A stretch of 10,730 nucleotides of DNA, from UHGV virus genome UHGV-1357920; one strand, given 5' to 3'. The translations under genes were made by a program, and so were the position numbers. Shown one piece after another: positions 306-10,182 of this stretch; positions within the stretch are counted from its first letter, which is position 1, and every line of letters starts with the position of its first letter. This DNA comes from a virus. The notes below the pieces were generated by a model that saw only the letters and a program-made list of their open reading frames with translations, did no database searches and was not told where the DNA came from.

Positions 306-893
306 TCAGAAAGCAGGGTAATCGTTCTGGCTGTAACCATAATCATCTGCATGATTCTGGCTTACGTTTTTAGAGCGATTGTCTTTATCTTTGAGATTGG
401 CAACCATGTTGGCGATAGTTTCTGGTTGCTTGCCTTCTGCCTTTTCTTTAAGGGTTTGACCTGTTTGTGCAATAAACGGGATGCGTATTTCCATCTGGTA
501 GCTGTCTGCGCCAGTCTTTTTGTTTGTGGTTAATACTTTCTGGAGCACTAACCCGATTTTCTTTCCATGAAATTCAGGTGCAACAAATTTACTGGCGGAA
601 ACCATATGCTGCGTTAATTGTCCAATCCCGGCACACCCCATCATGGCGTGAACGACATTTGCGCCAAATTTGTTTTCCGTTCCGTCATTTTTCTGAACAC
701 AGACGCTAAGATATTGGATTTTACGTCCGTCGTCGGATTCTCCAGAAAACTCAATAAATTTGGCTCCTTTTTCTGATTGCTTTAGTTCTGCTTCAGTAAT
801 GGTAATGATATGGGCGCCAGTTTCGTTAATAAAACCACCTTGCCCTGCGGTCAGTGCTGCTTCTTCGTTATAAGTAAAAATCACGTTGCTCAT
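306..893 (-). CDS. Phage SSB-like protein (DUF669-type partner of Sak4), 195 aa
   Basis: ORF of 195 aa whose ATG (893-891) overlaps the stop of the upstream Walker-A ATPase (ATGA overlap), implying translational coupling. The C-terminus ends in an acidic/aromatic tail (...DDYGYSQNDYPAF) reminiscent of the SSB C-terminal tip. The family call rests on gene context (Sak4-type ATPases are usually paired with a DUF669/SSB-like gene), not on a search. Confidence 0.5.
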   Translation of the reverse strand: MSNVIFTYNEEAALTAGQGGFINETGAHIITITEAELKQSEKGAKFIEFSGESDDGRKIQYLSVCVQKNDGTENKFGANVVHAMMGCAGIGQLTQHMVSASKFVAPEFHGKKIGLVLQKVLTTNKKTGADSYQMEIRIPFIAQTGQTLKEKAEGKQPETIANMVANLKDKDNRSKNVSQNHADDYGYSQNDYPAF

Positions 894-1570
894 GCGGCGT
901 TTTCCTTAATTTGATGAACATTATTGATGCCGTAGTAATCACAAACAGTGGCATCGACGAAAGAGAGATCGTTATCAATCTCATTGGAATCAAACATTCC
1001 CATTGGGGATTTGACAGTGTCTGCACCGTTGTTTTTCGTGGTGAAAAAGAACTGGTCATCGCGGGTAAGAGTGCGAAGAACTATAGTAAACATGCCTTCG
1101 ACAGTGATTTTCTCGTCCAGCATTTTGCCGATAGTTTTCATTTTCACGCGCCCCATAGGGGTTTCTTCGGTATGTGCAAGAAAATAGACTCTCAGGTCAT
1201 CAGGTGCATCCTGTGCAGCCTTAATCACCTCCCATGCGTGGCGGCCTATCTCAGTAAATTTATCAAACGATTTTTCTTCTGAGCGGCGCATAAACTCATT
1301 GCTCATCACATACTGGAAGTCATCAACAATAACGATTCTTTTTCCGTATTCGTGAGCACGCTTAATTACAGCAACTATTACGTCCCATTTGTCAGTGGTA
1401 ACTACGGTTCCTTTTTTTGCTCTGGCATCCCATGCAAGCCAGTCTTTTGATTTAAATGGTAGCGGCTTGCCTATTGGTTTTATAAGTATTGCTTCCTCTG
1501 GATTGATATTTCTCATGCTGGTTGATTTTCCGGTGCCAGATTCACCGAGTATTAATGTCGCAGTTCCCAT
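890..1570 (-). CDS. Sak4-like RecA-fold recombination ATPase (AAA_24-type), 226 aa
   Basis: Walker A GESGTGKST at residues 9-17 and Walker B-like IVIVDD; size and N-terminal P-loop topology fit phage Sak4-type single-strand annealing ATPases. SD GAGG 5 nt upstream of the ATG. It occupies the position of lambda bet/exo in the pL operon. Confidence 0.65.
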   Translation of the reverse strand: MGTATLILGESGTGKSTSMRNINPEEAILIKPIGKPLPFKSKDWLAWDARAKKGTVVTTDKWDVIVAVIKRAHEYGKRIVIVDDFQYVMSNEFMRRSEEKSFDKFTEIGRHAWEVIKAAQDAPDDLRVYFLAHTEETPMGRVKMKTIGKMLDEKITVEGMFTIVLRTLTRDDQFFFTTKNNGADTVKSPMGMFDSNEIDNDLSFVDATVCDYYGINNVHQIKENAA

Positions 1571-3179: not shown

Positions 3180-3719
3180 ATGAGTAACTGGTGGCAGGAA
3201 CTATTACGTTTCTTCCTGCGTGGTCTTACGCTACAACAGTTAATTCATATGCTTATTATTTTAATTGCCTTGATAATAATCACCCCCGCATCAATTAAAG
3301 AGTGGGTAGATATAAGGAACCCAGAAATACTTCCAGATCACTGGATGTATTACGCAATGCTTTTGTGTATCAGTTATGTTCTGAACAGGGTGATGGAGTT
3401 TATATTTCTGGCATCTTCAGACAGATATAAAAAATATCTCAGTAAGAGAGATGAGGCTAAAGTAATTGTGGAGACTGAGCGCCTGTTCAATTCTCTGAGT
3501 ATTCAGGAAAAAGAGGTTTTAGCATTTGCTGTTATGGCAAATAACAAAATCGTACTTAAGCACGGCGATCCGGTCGCTTTATCTCTTATGAGAAAAGGCC
3601 TTCTCCATCGCTCAGGTGTGACTTACAGCGCGTCAGGTAAAGAGAAATTTGTTATACCTGACGTCTGGTTCCATGAGTGTTATATGCGCTTTGCTGGTAA
3701 AGCTGATGAGCTAATTTAG
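3180..3719 (+). CDS. sieB: SieB-like superinfection exclusion membrane protein, 179 aa
   Basis: Plus-strand ORF embedded among leftward pL-operon genes and convergent with N (its 3' end is 22 nt from the N stop), the arrangement I recall for lambda sieB. N-terminal hydrophobic helices (LIHMLIILIALIIITPA; YYAMLLCISYVLNRVMEFIFLA); SD GGAG 8 nt upstream. The call is based on position and membrane topology, not on a verified alignment. Confidence 0.5.
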   Translation: MSNWWQELLRFFLRGLTLQQLIHMLIILIALIIITPASIKEWVDIRNPEILPDHWMYYAMLLCISYVLNRVMEFIFLASSDRYKKYLSKRDEAKVIVETERLFNSLSIQEKEVLAFAVMANNKIVLKHGDPVALSLMRKGLLHRSGVTYSASGKEKFVIPDVWFHECYMRFAGKADELI

Positions 3720-3725
3720 TTCCTC

Positions 3726-3753
3726 GACGGCGGGGGATCGTCACCTCGCCGTC
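3726..3753. terminator. GC-rich hairpin at the convergent sieB-like / N junction (possible bidirectional terminator)
   Basis: Inverted repeat GACGGCG (3726-3732) / CGCCGTC (3747-3753), extendable to about 10 bp with a G-U pair. It overlaps the N stop codon and is followed on the plus strand by a partly T-rich tract (AGTTGTTTGGATTT). Confidence 0.4.
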
Positions 3754-4124
3754 AGTTGTTTGGATTTCCGGTAGCCTGCCGCGTAAATGGCTACGTTTGG
3801 AAGACATACACCAGTTTCTGGTTGCTTATGTCCAAACTCATTCGCGTACACAATGGCCGCTCGCTCCAGATTGCGTCTGTATTCTTTCTGTTGCCAGATC
3901 ACGTCCTGTGCCATGAACTTAATTGGCTTAGCGTCTTCTATGCGCTCAGGCGTTTCGTGAGTACCTTTAGCCTGAATCTGCGCTCTGCTTAGAGTAGGGC
4001 GGTGTAATACTTCTGAACTTATTGCTTCTTCGCGGGCCAGCACGCCGTTAGCTAATGCCTTTGCCTTTAAACGCTCACGACGACGAGAACGTGAATTGCC
4101 TTTGAACTGAGTTCTGCGTGTCAT
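3741..4124 (-). CDS. N: N-type transcription antiterminator, 127 aa
   Basis: N-terminal arginine-rich motif (GNSRSRRRERLKAKALANG). The C-terminus ...AIYAAGYRKSKQLTAR closely resembles the C-terminus of P22 gp24/N as I recall it. SD AGGAGG upstream; a P22-type boxB lies in the leader. This is the first gene of the leftward early operon. Confidence 0.8.
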   Translation of the reverse strand: MTRRTQFKGNSRSRRRERLKAKALANGVLAREEAISSEVLHRPTLSRAQIQAKGTHETPERIEDAKPIKFMAQDVIWQQKEYRRNLERAAIVYANEFGHKQPETGVCLPNVAIYAAGYRKSKQLTAR

Positions 4125-4635: not shown

Positions 4636-5661
4636 TTATGGGCGAGTGATGGTTGATGCGTTTCCGTTTTCTATTACACCTGCTCGTATCGTGTAGCTTC
4701 CCAAGATTTTTACTGTCCTGTTTTCTTTCATTGCATCAAACAGTATGGCGATCTCGTCTTTATCATCTATGAACGACGTGTCCACCGAAACAGGGAAACT
4801 GTCTTCACTAGATGGTTCGCGGCAGCTTAGGGTTATCTTTTCCGCAGTACGCTTGATTCCATCAATGACTAATTCAAGGTTTCTTTCTTCTTTTTTTGCT
4901 TTTTCGATAGGGTTTTTGATTAGTTCGTGGATTTCTTTGTTAGACAGTTCAACTGTGCTTGCGCCTGATATGACAATTTTGTCAGCATCAGACGCGCCTT
5001 TTAATACCCCTGTATACGCTTTTGCAGTATGCTCTTGAATCCCTTCGGCGCGCTCTACTGCATCTATGCCCGCTTTAGCTCTAATCGCCTCAAGCATTCC
5101 GTCCCTTAATATCGTCATGCGCTCGTTTTCTGATTTAATCTTGGCTTCTTCGAGCTTTGTTTCTTCTTGCTTGACTTCTACTTCGGCTTTTTTCTCTAAG
5201 TATGATGTACCAACCCATGCACCGCCTATAACGGTGACAGCAAACAAGAAGCATAATGTTTTTTGGCTAGGACTCATACCGTGTGTTACCTTCTCAAAGG
5301 CTTTACCGAATGCTTCAAAAAGCTCTGTTAATGCAGCAAGTATATCAGTACAACCTTCATTAATGGTAAAGATGATCTCTGCTTCTTCTTTATCTTTACC
5401 GGTTAACCTTTGAAGGTTGTCAGTTTTATATTTTATTAGTGTGAAAACTTTATAAATTTCAGTCTGAAATTCGCATAAACCCTGAGCTAGAGGAGATGGA
5501 AGCGTTCCGTTGTAGCGAGAAGGATCACCATAAATCTTAAAATTCACATTATTGAAGAGGTCTAACTTGATCCTGTCGATAGTGATCTCTTCGCCACCAT
5601 CTAACCTTGCAAACAAAGATTCAATGTCGTCCAGACTTGAAACATTAATAATATCTTTCAT
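4636..5661 (-). CDS. Hypothetical 341-aa single-pass membrane protein in the cI-downstream (rexAB-equivalent) slot; candidate lysogen-expressed exclusion/defence protein
   Basis: Intact ORF with SD AGGTG 5 nt from the ATG, immediately downstream of and co-oriented with cI. One predicted TM helix (about LCFLFAVTVIGGAWVGTSYL), a soluble N-terminal region of about 130 aa and a K/E-rich, probably helical, C-terminal region. AT-rich; followed by a strong terminator. No known motif recognised. Confidence 0.75.
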   Translation of the reverse strand: MKDIINVSSLDDIESLFARLDGGEEITIDRIKLDLFNNVNFKIYGDPSRYNGTLPSPLAQGLCEFQTEIYKVFTLIKYKTDNLQRLTGKDKEEAEIIFTINEGCTDILAALTELFEAFGKAFEKVTHGMSPSQKTLCFLFAVTVIGGAWVGTSYLEKKAEVEVKQEETKLEEAKIKSENERMTILRDGMLEAIRAKAGIDAVERAEGIQEHTAKAYTGVLKGASDADKIVISGASTVELSNKEIHELIKNPIEKAKKEERNLELVIDGIKRTAEKITLSCREPSSEDSFPVSVDTSFIDDKDEIAILFDAMKENRTVKILGSYTIRAGVIENGNASTITRP

Positions 5662-5741
5662 TACAACACCTTCGGCACAACCTTGCTAGTTAAATTAGTG
5701 ATTATAAAAATTGGATACTTACCAGCTATGTGACGATGAAG

Positions 5742-6446
5742 TCACGAACTTTTCAGCCATTCCCTTGCCTCGATGTCATCCAGATGGCGAGACTGCTTCA
5801 GAATACCAGCAACATACTCCACCTTTGCTACTTGATGATAAGGCAACGTTATTGGCCTGTGGTCCTGGTTGATGCTTGTAAATTGGTATTCTCCATCTCT
5901 GTCATAGCCAAGAACCTTAATCATGTTGTGTCCTTCAACGGTTCTGACAAACACCTCATCACCCGGGAATACTTTGGTGTTAGGCTCAATGAGTACATAT
6001 TCTCCTGATTTTATTCTGGGCCACATGCTGTCTCCTTTCACACGAAGACCAAAGGCATCTGGATCATCGCTATAAATTTTGAGCCACCCATCGCGCTCTT
6101 CGGTCATCTCGATGGCACCATCAACACCAAGAATTGCCTCACCAACCACGCGCACTAACCCTTTTCTTACCTGACCGACAAAAGTTAAAGAATCTGAGCA
6201 TGATGCAATTGGTGTTACATCATGTACCAAATCAAGCCACCCATTAGGTAACCCAAGCGCGGCTTCAAATTTTCTTGCTAGTTTATCCCCTATGTTTCGA
6301 GTGCTTTTTTCACCGGAGACTTGCGTGAGTTGAGAAGGGCTAACCCCAAGCTTATCGGCAAAGCTTGCATTAGTGTTACCCGCGATTTTTTTATGCTCAT
6401 CTAGCAAAAACGCCAGATTCGATTTGCGAATATCTTTGTTTTCCAT
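5742..6446 (-). CDS. cI: CI-type prophage repressor (N-terminal HTH plus C-terminal S24/LexA-like autocleavage domain), 234 aa
   Basis: The N-terminus has an XRE-type HTH (...ASFADKLGVSPSQLTQVSG...). The C-terminal domain carries the S24 peptidase signature GDSMWP (Ser nucleophile) and a downstream Lys (MIKVL). It is divergent from the cro-like gene across an operator-rich 113-bp spacer. Confidence 0.85.
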   Translation of the reverse strand: MENKDIRKSNLAFLLDEHKKIAGNTNASFADKLGVSPSQLTQVSGEKSTRNIGDKLARKFEAALGLPNGWLDLVHDVTPIASCSDSLTFVGQVRKGLVRVVGEAILGVDGAIEMTEERDGWLKIYSDDPDAFGLRVKGDSMWPRIKSGEYVLIEPNTKVFPGDEVFVRTVEGHNMIKVLGYDRDGEYQFTSINQDHRPITLPYHQVAKVEYVAGILKQSRHLDDIEAREWLKSS

Positions 6447-6464
6447 CTCACAATTTTCCCTCTA

Positions 6465-6532
6465 TTTAGCAAATGGATAAATACGCAATATGATAAATTT
6501 ACATTGCGGTTGATTTATCAAAATGGTAAAGT
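6465..6532 (+). promoter_or_regulatory. OR operators and PR promoter (PRM presumably in the same region, not mapped)
   Basis: Palindromic sites TTTAGCaaatgGATAAA (6465-6481) and TTTATCaaaatGGTAAA (6515-6531), with a further GATAAA half-site at 6492-6497. PR candidate: -35 TTGCGG (6504-6509), 17-nt spacer, -10 TAAAGT (6527-6532), followed by SD GGAGG (6550-6554) and the cro ATG at 6560. Confidence 0.5.
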
Positions 6533-6559
6533 TGTTCTGTGTGATAAACGGAGGCACTA

Positions 6560-6793
6560 ATGAGTAATGAACTACTACGCTGGCGAAAAGAGGCTTCTAG
6601 TGAGGAATGGAAGCGACTCGCCGCATTAGCGAAAACTTCAGTTGGCTATCTTGACCAGATTGCATATGGATTTCGAAGAGCTTCCCCTGATAAAGCGAAT
6701 GCAATCGAAGAAGCTACTCGTAATTTCACGGGTTATAAACCTGTGAAAAAGGAAAACCTGGTGTTCGTATCGCGTAGAGCATCGGCTGCATAA
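6560..6793 (+). CDS. cro: Cro-like early repressor (small HTH protein), 77 aa
   Basis: First gene of the rightward operon, divergent from cI, with strong SD GGAGG at 5-nt spacing. It contains a probable HTH (LAALAKTSVGYLDQIAYG). It is not lambda Cro by sequence; the call rests on position and size. Confidence 0.6.
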   Translation: MSNELLRWRKEASSEEWKRLAALAKTSVGYLDQIAYGFRRASPDKANAIEEATRNFTGYKPVKKENLVFVSRRASAA

Positions 6794-6831
6794 GTAACAC
6801 CGCTATTTTCACAATGGACATTCGTCCTACG

Positions 6832-6846
6832 TCGCTGACAAAGCGA
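6832..6846 (+). promoter_or_regulatory. nutR boxB-like hairpin (UCGCUGACAAAGCGA)
   Basis: TCGCTGACAAAGCGA has the same loop (UGACAAA) and a near-identical stem to the nutL boxB, and lies between cro and cII where nutR is expected. A weak boxA-like CGCTATTTT sits at 6801-6809, but the 22-nt spacing is atypical. Confidence 0.55.
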
Positions 6847-6931: not shown

Positions 6932-7231
6932 ATGGAACAAACAAGTTACAGCAAACTATCACAGCGTGACGTTGATCGCGCAGAAACAGATTTACTCATC
7001 AACCTGTCAACTATTACCCAGCGCGGTCTGGCAAAGATGATTGGCTGTCATGAATCGAAGATAAGCAGAACGGACTGGCGGTTTATTGCTTCGGTCCTGT
7101 GTGCTTTCGGAATGGCATCAGACATCAGTCCGATTAGCAGGGCTTTTAAGTATGCGCTTGATGAAATCACCAATAAAAAACGCCCGGTGTGCAAGACCGA
7201 GCGTTCTGATCAAATACAAATGGAATTTTAA
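6932..7231 (+). CDS. cII: CII transcriptional activator, 99 aa
   Basis: The C-terminus ...ITNKKRPVCKTERSDQIQMEF matches the lambda CII C-terminus (...LTNKKRPAATERSEQIQMEF) as I recall it. Central HTH region present; located downstream of cro and nutR. Confidence 0.85.
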   Translation: MEQTSYSKLSQRDVDRAETDLLINLSTITQRGLAKMIGCHESKISRTDWRFIASVLCAFGMASDISPISRAFKYALDEITNKKRPVCKTERSDQIQMEF

Positions 7232-7253: not shown

Positions 7254-7397
7254 ATGCGAAAAACGCAGGAAAATAAACGCGTTAATCACCGAAAAGATGT
7301 GCTACGTGACCAGTTTTATCAGGGGGTTAATCCAGCAATAGCTGTGCCACTGAGAGAAATACTTAACAGGTACAAAACTTCGGAGAAGTCAAAATGA
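7254..7397 (+). CDS. Small basic hypothetical protein, 47 aa (internal start of track ORF 7086..7397)
   Basis: ATG at 7254 is preceded by SD GAGG (7243-7246); its stop overlaps the start of the O-like gene (ATGA at 7394-7397), suggesting translational coupling. Sequence MRKTQENKRVNHRKDVLRDQFYQGVNPAIAVPLREILNRYKTSEKSK. Could be a spurious ORF. Confidence 0.4.
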   Translation: MRKTQENKRVNHRKDVLRDQFYQGVNPAIAVPLREILNRYKTSEKSK

Positions 7398-8191
7398 GCA
7401 TGAATCTTATGGCTAAGGCCATGAATATAAAGGTTGGCAACCCACTGAGAAAACTGGTTCTGATTAAACTTGCCGATAACGCCAATGATAATGGCGAATG
7501 CTGGCCTTCATATCAACATGTCGCTGACCAGTGTGAGGTGAGCAGATCGACAGTAAAAAGTCACATTAGGGCACTGGAAGAGATGGGGCTTTTGAAAAGG
7601 GAATTCAGAAGAAAAGGAGAGCTTAACCAGTCAAACGTTTTTTATCTGACGCTGGATAATGCACAACAAATCCAACCAGAATCAGGTGGGGCAGGAGCTG
7701 CCCGGGGTGGGGCAGGAGCTGCCCGGGGTGGGGCAGGAGCTGCCCTAGGGGGTGGGGCAGGAGCTGCCCCCAGAACCTATCACTCTTTTGAACCAGTCAA
7801 TGAACCTAAAAACATTATGTTCGAACATGTCCGAACGGAGTGTGAAAAAACTCCTGACCGTCACGAAGAAACCGACAAGGCATTCGAGGAAATATTCTGG
7901 TGTGCAGGCATGCGGAAAGCCGGGAAGAAAAACGCAGCTTCGGCATTCAGAACACAGTTCAGGGAATGGCGTAAAACTACCAGGGGTACGGCAAGCGAGT
8001 TTGCCACGATGCTGGCAGAAGACATCGCATGCAGGAGTGGTAAGCAGTTCGGATTCGACAGGTTGTTACCATCGAGCTACCTGAACGGTCAACGCTGGAA
8101 CGACGAGAAGCCAGAAACTATTCAACCGCAACCCAAACCATCATCCGCAATCACCGTATCGAAAACTGGCTACGTGTTTTTCGACAGGTGA
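7394..8191 (+). CDS. Replication initiator (lambda O-like role) with N-terminal winged-HTH and an iteron-encoded Gly/Ala-rich linker, 265 aa
   Basis: The N-terminal HTH region (CWPSYQHVADQCEVSRSTVKSHIRALEEMGLLKRE) is typical of phage replication-initiation proteins. The central peptide repeat GGAGAAR is encoded by four tandem DNA iterons. The gene sits after cII, where lambda O and P22 gene 18 lie. Confidence 0.7.
   Translation: MSMNLMAKAMNIKVGNPLRKLVLIKLADNANDNGECWPSYQHVADQCEVSRSTVKSHIRALEEMGLLKREFRRKGELNQSNVFYLTLDNAQQIQPESGGAGAARGGAGAARGGAGAALGGGAGAAPRTYHSFEPVNEPKNIMFEHVRTECEKTPDRHEETDKAFEEIFWCAGMRKAGKKNAASAFRTQFREWRKTTRGTASEFATMLAEDIACRSGKQFGFDRLLPSSYLNGQRWNDEKPETIQPQPKPSSAITVSKTGYVFFDR
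7686..7769. repeat. Four tandem iterons (GTGGGGCAGGAGCTGCCC; period 21, 21, 24 bp), putative phage origin inside the initiator gene
   Basis: Directly visible copies at 7686-7703, 7707-7724, 7728-7745 and 7752-7769, followed by a relatively AT-rich stretch (about 7775-7835). This is the same architecture as lambda ori inside O. Confidence 0.7.
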
Positions 8192-8301
8192 ACCATGAGA
8201 TCCAGAATCAAATCGTTACTTATCGCTGGCTATAACCATGGCTGGCTTAGTTCTGCATTCGTTGAGTTCTGGTTTAACCGTCTCGATCTGAGGTCAGCGT
8301 A

Positions 8302-10182
8302 ATGACTCCAAGTGAACTGAGCGACCTGCTTTGGGCGCAGGTTGACAGGGTGGCTCCGCACCTGTTGCCAAACGGCAAGAAAGAGGGGCATGAGTGGGTT
8401 GCCGGTAATGTCAACGGTGACAAGGGAAACAGCCTTAAGGTCAACCTTAGCGGCAAGAAAAAATGGGCTGATTTCGCCGAGGGAGACGGCGGTGACATGC
8501 TTGATTTGTGGATGGCATGTCGTGGAATTAACCTGCATCAGGCTATGCAGGAAGCGAAAGCATTTCTCGGTATCAAGGATGACGATCACCATTTCGATGC
8601 CAGACGTGAGAAAAAATTCTCCAGACCTGATCGCAAGAAAATCGCCCGCTACGTTACCAGAACAGAATCCCATCTTGAGTACCTGCAATCGCGTGGCATA
8701 TCGCCAGAAATCGTAAAGCGCTACGAGGTTGTCAGCGGCAAGGTGTGGAATGGAGAGCGGGAACTGGATGCTCTGGTGATTCCGTACAAACGCGATGGTG
8801 AGTTGTTGCAGGTCAAGCGAATCAGCACTGAGCGCCCGGACGGGAAGAAAGTCATTATGGCAGAAGGTGATTGCGAACCTTGCCTGTTCGGATGGCAGGC
8901 TCTGGACGCTGGCGTGAGGGCGGTTGTACTTTGCGAAGGCGAAATTGATTGTATGAGCTATGCGCAATACGGCATCTCGGCGTTATCCGTACCGTTTGGT
9001 GGAGGGAAAGGCGCTAAGCAACAGTGGATTGAGTTTGAGTATCACAACCTCGACAGGTTTGAGGAAATATTCATCTCGATGGACGTTGATGATGTTGGTC
9101 GTGAAGCCGCAAGGGAAATCGCAAGCCGACTCGGTGAACATCGTTGCCGTCTTGTTACTCTGCCGTGCAAAGACATCAACGAATGCCTGATGAACGGTGT
9201 TACCGAGGATGAAATCTGGCAGTACATCGGCACGGCATCCTACTTCGATCCTGAAGAACTCTACAGCGCGCGAGAGTTTTACCAGGACACTATCAACGCT
9301 TTCTACGGCAAGCAGCAGTATCTGTTTAATCCACCGTGGGAATCTCTGGCAGATAAATTCCAGTTCCGTGAGGCAGAGTTGACGCTGGTCAATGGTGTGA
9401 ACGGTCACGGAAAAACGGAGGTTGTCGGGCATATGGCACTTGAGGCAATGCGTCAGGGTGTGAAGACGTGCATCGCGTCACTTGAGCTGAAGCCTGGTAT
9501 TCTCCTTAAGCGCCTTACCCGTCAGGCGACGTGCTGCAAGATGCCACCAGTGCTGGAAATTGACTCTGCATTTAAATTTTATGACGAAAGACTTTGGGTG
9601 TTTGGCCTGACCGGAACGGCGAAAGCCGACAGGCTGATCGAAATATTCGACTACGCTCGCCGCCGATACGGGATCCAGTTATTCATCATCGACAGCCTGA
9701 TGAAATGTGGCATAGGCGACGATGACTATAACGGGCAGAAGGCGTTTGTTGACTCGATTTGCGACTTCAAAAACAAAACAAACTCCCACGTCATTCTCGT
9801 TACTCACTCGCGAAAAGGAGACAGCGAAGAAAAACCAACCGGGAAAATGGACGTAAAAGGCTCTGGAGCGATAACAGACCTGACAGACAACCTTTTCATC
9901 ATCTGGCGTAACAAGGCTCGCGAGAGAGCGTTACAGAGAGTTCAGAGTGGTGAAAAGATGTCAGAGAAGGACGAACAGCTACTGGCATCTCCGGCATCTG
10001 TTTTGATGCTTGAAAAACAACGTAACGGCGAAGGTTGGGAAGGTGGTGTCCCGTTGTTCCTTGACGAGCAATCGCACCAGTTCCTGCAACTTGAATCAGG
10101 ATCGCCATATAGCTACATCGCCAATATGCCGAAATCGGAATATGACGAGGCGTGGCGACAGGAAAACGTGACGGAGTATTAA
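8302..10182 (+). CDS. Bifunctional primase-helicase (degenerate zinc-ribbon-like N-terminus, TOPRIM primase, DnaB/gp4-like RecA-fold helicase), 626 aa
   Basis: TOPRIM motifs (VVLCEGEIDCMSY with the conserved Glu; ISMDVDDVG with DxD). Helicase Walker A (NGVNGHGKTE) and Walker B (LFIIDSLMK). The N-terminal segment aligns by eye to the DnaG/gp4 zinc-binding domain but lacks the Cys/His ligands. Confidence 0.85.
   Translation: MTPSELSDLLWAQVDRVAPHLLPNGKKEGHEWVAGNVNGDKGNSLKVNLSGKKKWADFAEGDGGDMLDLWMACRGINLHQAMQEAKAFLGIKDDDHHFDARREKKFSRPDRKKIARYVTRTESHLEYLQSRGISPEIVKRYEVVSGKVWNGERELDALVIPYKRDGELLQVKRISTERPDGKKVIMAEGDCEPCLFGWQALDAGVRAVVLCEGEIDCMSYAQYGISALSVPFGGGKGAKQQWIEFEYHNLDRFEEIFISMDVDDVGREAAREIASRLGEHRCRLVTLPCKDINECLMNGVTEDEIWQYIGTASYFDPEELYSAREFYQDTINAFYGKQQYLFNPPWESLADKFQFREAELTLVNGVNGHGKTEVVGHMALEAMRQGVKTCIASLELKPGILLKRLTRQATCCKMPPVLEIDSAFKFYDERLWVFGLTGTAKADRLIEIFDYARRRYGIQLFIIDSLMKCGIGDDDYNGQKAFVDSICDFKNKTNSHVILVTHSRKGDSEEKPTGKMDVKGSGAITDLTDNLFIIWRNKARERALQRVQSGEKMSEKDEQLLASPASVLMLEKQRNGEGWEGGVPLFLDEQSHQFLQLESGSPYSYIANMPKSEYDEAWRQENVTEY

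Follow-up and report, generated by a model that had tools for sequence, protein, structure and literature searches.

A lambdoid prophage primase-helicase predicted to keep a DnaG-type zinc-binding-domain fold without its metal ligands

Introduction

Can a primase whose zinc-binding domain has lost every metal ligand still read its template and make primers? The question is raised by a gene at positions 8302..10182 (+ strand) of UHGV virus genome UHGV-1357920, a stretch of 10,730 nucleotides that was analysed as a whole and is called the window here. Pfam and PHROG matches of its open reading frames (ORFs) identify the window as the immunity/replication region of a lambdoid Escherichia coli prophage, and the gene encodes a bifunctional primase-helicase of 626 amino acids (aa). 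To our knowledge, the zinc motif is held to be necessary for template recognition in every primase of this class that has been studied (T7 gp4, bacterial DnaG and plant Twinkle).

The gene, its family label and its replication module are already present in databases and papers: the replication region of phages epsilon34 and ES18 has been reported to consist of an origin-binding protein and a putative helicase (PMC2629481), and some sources label family members 'twinkle protein'. Loss of zinc-binding-domain cysteines also has a precedent in metazoan Twinkle, the closest known case (PMC7231222). Our literature searches found neither a description of a family-wide ligand-less DnaG-type domain accompanied by an intact primase site nor a biochemical characterization of any family member, which does not prove that none exists; no earlier account appears to pair an intact primase active site with a zinc-binding domain that lacks its ligands. 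From profile comparisons, predicted structures and residue counts across the family, we consider it reasonably probable that the product serves as replicative primase-helicase in an ES18-type ('Eru5') replication module, and that its N-terminal domain would still contact the template and hand off primers without needing a metal.

Results

A single-polypeptide primase-helicase

A preliminary description, made from the sequence by eye, had proposed that TOPRIM primase motifs and a gp4-like RecA-fold helicase are united in one polypeptide, and Pfam, PHROG and a phmmer search of PDB agree with it. The ORF listing contains the claimed reading frame (8302..10182, +, ATG start, 626 aa plus stop), and the two motifs quoted for the helicase lie within the product, NGVNGHGKTE (Walker A) at aa 364-373, including K371, and LFIIDSLMK (Walker B) at aa 460-468, including D464. 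Pfam matches comprise Toprim_2 at aa 209-296 (E 3.5e-12) together with AAA_25 and DnaB_C spanning aa 355-594, so that of the profile models suggested for checking these two domains were recognized, and the zinc-binding model only below threshold. The PHROG match is phrog_239, 'DNA primase/helicase' (E 7e-172); phmmer finds T7 gp4 (E 7e-25, aa 192-539 of the query) and human Twinkle (E 6e-14) in PDB, and hhalign aligns query aa 123-329 with T7 gp4 residues 76-274 at a probability of 99.6%. By these comparisons the product is a T7 gp4/Twinkle-like, single-polypeptide, bifunctional primase-helicase. The + frame is taken as coding because 200 of the 243 substitutions relative to the homologue in Salmonella phage SEN22 fall at codon position 3.

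The likeness to T7 gp4 extends to the domain order and to all catalytic residues. The RNA-polymerase (primase) domain (8662..9195, +) has an N-subdomain at aa 121-200, with K172, R178 and K182, and a TOPRIM part at aa 205-298 whose metal ligands E212/E214/D216, D261/D263 and D291 correspond to E157/E159/D161, D207/D209 and D237 of gp4; the basic residues K172 and K182 correspond to gp4 K122 and K128. Within the SF4 (gp4/DnaB-type) helicase domain (9364..10083, +; aa 355-594), the Walker A lysine K371, the catalytic glutamate E395, the Walker B aspartate D464, the sensor histidine H502 and the arginine finger R574 correspond to gp4 K318, E343, D424, H465 and R522. Conservation was counted in 75-89 representatives of the family, at 26-60% identity to the query. 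E212, E214, D261 and D291 are invariant among 75 representatives; D216, D263 and K172, as well as K371, E395, D464, H502 and R574, are each at least 90% conserved, and the invariance of K182 is seen only in the close family alignment (A1). Since the catalytic residues are invariant or at least 90% conserved, the primase and helicase halves both look functional.

The N-terminal domain and its missing ligands

Three profile methods place aa 26-90 on the CHC2 zinc-binding domain of DnaG, in one register. Pfam PF01807 (Zn_ribbon_DnaG) aligns aa 26-88 with model positions 26-88, at 12.3 bits against a gathering cutoff of 24.9 (E 0.16), and the TIGR01391 dnaG model aligns aa 26-143 with its positions 27-155 (E 2e-5). 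An hhalign comparison of a 104-sequence family profile with E. coli DnaG pairs aa 26-271 with residues 30-319 (probability 96.8%, E 2.4e-10), and the register is unchanged when the N-terminal domain alone is compared with the DnaG zinc-binding domain (E 3e-5). In the hhalign alignment the E. coli DnaG ligands C40/H43/C61/C64 fall on G35, N38, D57 and E60, whose codons lie within 8404..8481 (+; 8404-8406, 8413-8415, 8470-8472 and 8479-8481, respectively). The query has no Cys within aa 1-72, and H30 is the sole His within aa 26-72.

The N-terminal string quoted in the preliminary description, GHEWVAGNVNGDKGNSLKVNLSGKKKWADFAEGDGGDMLDLWM, is found at aa 29-71. It had been aligned there with the zinc-binding domain of 'DnaG/T7 gp4', and only the first half of that assignment stands: the domain is of the DnaG CHC2 type (hhalign, TIGR01391), not of the T7 gp4 C4 type, as residues 1-70 of gp4, its zinc-binding domain, have no similarity to the query N-terminus in hhalign (probability 0.2%). 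Likewise, all four ligands are lost as had been stated, and the residues in their place are Gly/Asn/Asp/Glu rather than Gly/Ala/Asp/Glu. Zinc-ribbon families of the gp4 type, such as PF08273, are absent from the Pfam matches listed for the query and for 75 family members. Unlike T7 gp4, with its short C4 zinc ribbon (C17, C20, C36, C39), the phage protein has a longer, DnaG-type domain without ligands. It has its fold in common with the DnaG CHC2 domain (PDB 2au3, 1d0q; PF01807) and differs from it in the four substitutions and in a score below the Pfam gathering cutoff; it is moreover fused to a helicase, whereas DnaG carries a DnaB-binding C-terminal domain instead.

Structure prediction depended on the depth of the alignment. 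A full-length AlphaFold model made from a shallow alignment (26 sequences, identity at least 69%) has a mean pLDDT of 69, with aa 30-63 below 50. Searching for homologues again, this time with a profile built from distant representatives, yielded a 145-row alignment of aa 1-110 that reaches homologues of about 45% identity, and with this alignment AlphaFold models aa 1-90 at a pLDDT of 92-95, as two helices, a five-stranded ribbon-like sheet and two further helices. The secondary structure predicted for aa 1-95 has helices at 3-12, 14-21, 66-74 and 78-89, and strands at 26-28, 31-34, 45-48, 55-57 and 62-64. The linker from this domain to the primase core (8572..8661, +; aa 91-120) is of low confidence, with a pLDDT below 60 in both models. 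The prediction for aa 1-90 supports a homologue of the primase zinc-binding domain, and neither of the two observations that the preliminary description had named as contrary to it, zinc ligands at the aligned positions or an unrelated fold, was made. Alignments and model together indicate that aa 1-95 (8302..8586, +) keep the DnaG-type zinc-binding-domain fold without any of the four Cys/His ligands, and the missing ligands suggest that the domain is free of zinc.

Conservation and distribution of the family

When aa 1-200 were searched against 1.84 billion representative proteins, 2748 clusters (at 50% identity) reached E<=1e-3, and 706 reached the stricter threshold of E<=1e-10. Residues were counted in 141 aligned sequences, namely the query and the 140 best representatives of at least 180 aa. 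Gly occupies position 35, and Asp position 57, in 135 of the 141 each, positions 38 and 60 are variable, and no sequence among the 141 has Cys or His at position 35 or 57; 14 of them lack any Cys or His throughout aa 26-72. An alternative Cys/His cluster was considered and rejected, as Cys occurs at 33, 34, 48 or 56 in some members in no consistent combination. The N-terminal consensus reads LLPxGK..G.EW..GS..GE.G.SLKV.L.G.KA.W.DFA.G..GDLLDLW, with W32, G35, G39, G42, S44, G51, W55, D57, F58, G64, D65 and L69 invariant or nearly so, and aa 1-95 are 100% identical in SEN22, whereas the whole gene is 87% identical in DNA. These alignments indicate strong purifying selection on the ligand-less domain throughout a very large protein family of proteobacterial prophages and mobile elements. 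Ligand loss is shared by the whole family to which this very common prophage protein belongs, and is not peculiar to 8302..10182. Because the Pfam CHC2 model recognizes only 3 of 75 family members (at E<=1), databases annotate nothing in the N-terminal region.

The domain is found in ES18, epsilon34, g341c, SEN22, phages of Vibrio, Pseudomonas and Ralstonia, and the Wolbachia phage WO. At the DNA level the gene is 98-99% identical to annotated genes of Sf101, mEp043, APC_JM3.2 and the Stx2 phages F403, F451, 24B and Min27, and it is carried by 296 of 5426 complete E. coli genomes; its N-terminal 95 aa are 97-99% identical to those of ES18 and epsilon34. The same gene occupies the same place, after an O-like initiator, in ES18 (gp61), epsilon34 (gp52), Sf101, mEp043, F403, 24B and Min27. 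What distinguishes the ES18/Eru5 phages is that their Stx2 alleles carry an intein and that their initiator N-domains vary; the gene itself does not otherwise differ. A Legionella homologue of 45% identity (contig L006, gene 5001..6833) is situated in a small tyrosine-integrase island without an O-like gene, from which it appears that the family also serves integrative elements other than lambdoid phages.

The alleles of Stx2 phages 24B, Min27, F403 and F451 are 968 aa long, owing to a 342-aa insert that follows K371 within the Walker A loop (GHGK|T). As the insert has two LAGLIDADG-like motifs and an HN at its end (24B 'P', L001 3001..5907), its sequence marks it as an intein with a homing endonuclease; the allele in the window is intein-free. 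A Cronobacter homologue (P0012), also of 968 aa, may have the same insert.

Two further matches were noted for the N-terminal region. Residues 40-123 (8419..8670) weakly match positions 1590-1674 of the NCBIfam model TraI_TIGR, a conjugative relaxase/helicase (E 4e-5), and the region also matches PRK07078, a 759-aa 'hypothetical protein' family (E 1e-17). In view of these two matches, the ligand-less domain may also occur in proteins of conjugative elements.

The replication module

The genes cI, cro, cII and the O-like initiator are followed by the primase-helicase, which stands in the slot of lambda P; phages 24B and SEN22 and a Proteus mirabilis prophage likewise have the initiator before the primase-helicase. 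The preliminary description had the gene replacing lambda P, and it does lie directly after an O-like protein, with no member of the lambda-P family among the Pfam, PHROG and NCBIfam matches of its ORF or of its neighbours; the label 'P' in the record of phage 24B is positional only. The genomic slot, the iterons inside the initiator gene and a partner-specific O C-terminal domain are shared with lambda O/P, whereas a P homologue is absent and the partner is a helicase with a primase. Hijacking of host DnaB, as by lambda, would presumably be unnecessary. T7 differs in another respect: it supplies its own DNA polymerase, whereas the window has none, and the gene lies behind a lambda-style O-like initiator.

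The O-like initiator (7394..8191, +; Pfam and PHROG matches) comprises an HTH_36 N-domain and a C-domain at aa 125-265. Compared with the initiators at L004 2093..2890 and L005 4026..4883, its C-domain is 84% identical to that of the SEN22 O protein and 49% identical to that of the Proteus mirabilis prophage; the N-domains of these two are of the lambda-O type and do not align with the HTH_36 domain. That the C-domain is common to initiators with unrelated N-domains suggests that it is a partner-specific interface for the primase-helicase. At 7685..7769 the O-like gene contains four tandem iterons, each about 21 bp long, GGTGGGGCAGGAGCTGCCC (Tandem Repeats Finder: period 21, 3.9 copies, 95% matches). 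Each bears a GGGCAG/CTGCCC dyad; together they encode a GGAGAAR repeat linker of the O-like protein, and a moderately A+T-rich stretch comes next. The iterons are a probable origin of replication, placed within the initiator gene as in lambda.

Between the two genes is a small ORF of 35 aa (8195..8302, +), whose TAA stop overlaps the ATG of the primase-helicase (TAATG). Its product, MRSRIKSLLIAGYNHGWLSSAFVEFWFNRLDLRSA, matches phrog_21848 (unknown function; E 1.7e-27) and is conserved in SEN22 and the Proteus prophage, behind O proteins with unrelated N-domains. It is not annotated in the 24B record or the Proteus contig, and no coding sequence is listed for SEN22. Its translation may be coupled to that of the primase-helicase, for which it may serve as an accessory. 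Since the C-domain and the 35-aa ORF are both kept behind unrelated N-domains, it appears that the O C-domain, the micro-protein and the primase-helicase are inherited as a unit behind interchangeable origin-binding domains. On the strength of 99% DNA identity to Stx2a_F403 and a shared gene order, we assign the module to the ES18-type or 'Eru5' lambdoid replication modules, Stx2a_F403 being the Eru5 reference phage (PMC8951638).

The C-terminal tail

Beyond the helicase domain the protein ends in a conserved tail, SPYSYIANMPKSEYDEAWRQENVTEY (10084..10179, +; aa 595-626), in which A607, N608, M609, Y614 and V623 are invariant in alignment A1. It is acidic and aromatic (pattern SPYxYIANMPxSEYDEVW..NVTEY), is predicted to be disordered (pLDDT below 50 in the full-length model), and resembles the acidic polymerase-binding tail of T7 gp4. 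As the window is without a phage polymerase, the tail could, by that analogy, be a contact for the host replisome. The string 'SHQFL' (aa 591-595) was considered as a beta-clamp-binding motif and rejected by inference, as its counterpart in gp4 appears to be the region of the final strand of the helicase core ('...TGWLEP'); this was judged from the T7 gp4 sequence, and no alignment spans aa 591-595.

Other features of the window

Upstream of the replication genes the window contains an SSB gene (306..893, -), a Sak4-like annealing protein (890..1570, -), a SieB-like exclusion protein (3180..3719, +), an N-like antiterminator (3741..4124, -), cI (5742..6446, -), a cro-like gene (6560..6793, +) and cII (6932..7231, +). 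Between the N-like antiterminator and cI is a 341-aa ORF (4636..5661, -) that has no Pfam match and matches only phrog_6191 (unknown function); it may be a moron or a defence gene. A Ser/Thr kinase gene (stk) occurs somewhere in the aligned early region of related Stx2 phages.

Discussion

How the primase-helicase might work

We propose that the O-like initiator binds the four iterons in its own gene and opens the neighbouring DNA. Its C-terminal domain would then recruit the primase-helicase, possibly together with the co-translated 35-aa protein, and the primase-helicase would form a ring on the lagging-strand template and move 5'->3' by NTP hydrolysis, making RNA primers at its own TOPRIM site for the host polymerase. 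Because a gp4-like ring helicase carries its own primase, the phage would need no lambda-P-type loader and no host DnaB, and probably no host DnaG. In the N-terminal domain a core of W32, L45, L49, W55, F58, L69 and W70 would replace the Zn(Cys)3His centre as the staple, with tight glycine turns (G35, G39, G42, G51, G64) helping to hold the domain together, so that, tethered by a flexible linker, it could go on contacting the template and handing off primers independently of a metal. A wider version of the proposal would have a very large family of phage and mobile-element proteins prime template-directed RNA synthesis through a wholly metal-free DnaG-fold domain, with the cassette acting as an origin loader independent of DnaB, DnaC and DnaG; this version we advance tentatively, at somewhat less than an even chance.

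Several points weigh against these proposals. The full-length model from the shallow alignment is poor at aa 30-63, and the confident model hinges on the 145-row alignment; the packing that would take the place of zinc is inferred. Recruitment by the O C-domain, the oligomeric state, the polarity and the independence of DnaB and DnaG are carried over by analogy from lambda O/P and T7 gp4, and the Eru replication proteins have been reported as functionally uncharacterized (PMC8951638). Most directly, passages in PMC7231222 and PMC10557236 describe the zinc motif as required for template recognition and primer synthesis in T7 gp4 and plant Twinkle, and in human Twinkle, where three of the four cysteines of the zinc-binding domain are missing, primase activity is gone as well (PMC7231222, PMC9860392). 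Since the motif is needed in the former two and priming is lost in the latter, a ligand-less zinc-binding domain could mean that there is no sequence-specific priming.

Alternative explanations

Human Twinkle also gives rise to an alternative explanation, which would have the phage protein be no working template-directed primase; its N-terminal half would be a module for binding single-stranded DNA, loading or regulation, and host DnaG would do the priming. Like the phage protein, human Twinkle is a gp4-like protein with a zinc-binding-like domain that lacks zinc-binding cysteines (PMC7231222), and it retains a DNA-binding N-terminal domain that is needed for processive synthesis (PMC7231222, PMC9860392). 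That all four ligands are absent from the phage domain points the same way, as does the dependence of sequence recognition by T7 gp4 on its zinc motif, according to work cited in PMC7231222. Human Twinkle, however, has lost the Mg-binding site of its TOPRIM domain as well (PMC9860392), whereas E212, E214, D261 and D291 are invariant in the phage family, and the conservation of D216, D263 and K172 at 26-60% identity would be hard to explain without catalysis. Nor is a DnaB-type surface for interaction with DnaG evident, the helicase being gp4-like and not DnaB-like. We regard this alternative as unlikely, and prefer a domain that still contacts template for an active primase.

The ligands might also have been exchanged instead of lost, in that the carboxylates D57, E60/D62, D65, E31 and D/E40 could form a substitute site for Mg, Mn, Ca or even Zn. 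The counts among the 141 aligned sequences lend themselves to such a site: D57, which in the hhalign register stands exactly at a former Cys position, and D65 occur in 135 each, and acidic residues are frequent at positions 31 (E, 113), 40 (D/E, 116), 62 (D/E, 93) and 68 (D, 117). Position 35, however, is a Gly and incapable of ligation, and positions 38 and 60 are variable. Moreover, D65 and D68 match the N and the D of the canonical 'GN.ID' in zinc-containing E. coli DnaG, and since equivalents exist there, their conservation needs no new metal site. A substitute site seems to us quite improbable beside a fold held by hydrophobic packing and glycine turns.

Very little can be said for an offset in the by-eye alignment, or for an unrelated fold with ligands elsewhere: the below-threshold Zn_ribbon_DnaG score and its recognition of so few family members would be in keeping with it, but the hhalign register to DnaG and the Cys/His content of the query exclude it. 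Hardly more credible is a real overlapping gene in the antisense ORF (8230..8967, -), which is open for 245 aa in the window, because 33 of the 37 SEN22 substitutions in the overlap are at + codon position 3, which is antisense codon position 1, and the antisense frame is interrupted by a stop in SEN22; we reject it as a gene and agree with the preliminary description in calling it a shadow ORF.

What the family may tell about primases

In one respect the significance of the gene is limited: it is already annotated as a primase/helicase, is otherwise as expected, and overturns no model. It nevertheless drives replication in common prophages of E. coli and Salmonella, Eru5-type Shiga-toxin phages among them, and its ligand-less domain poses a clean, testable question for primase specialists. 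Because the ligands are wholly lost while the domain and the TOPRIM site are strictly conserved, the family could reveal whether other structural elements can stand in for the metal, and which residues outside the ligand set read the template. If the wider version of our proposal is true, the primase zinc-binding domain could carry out recognition and hand-off without zinc, and the family would offer a metal-free model, supplied by nature, of the reading of initiation sites by primases.

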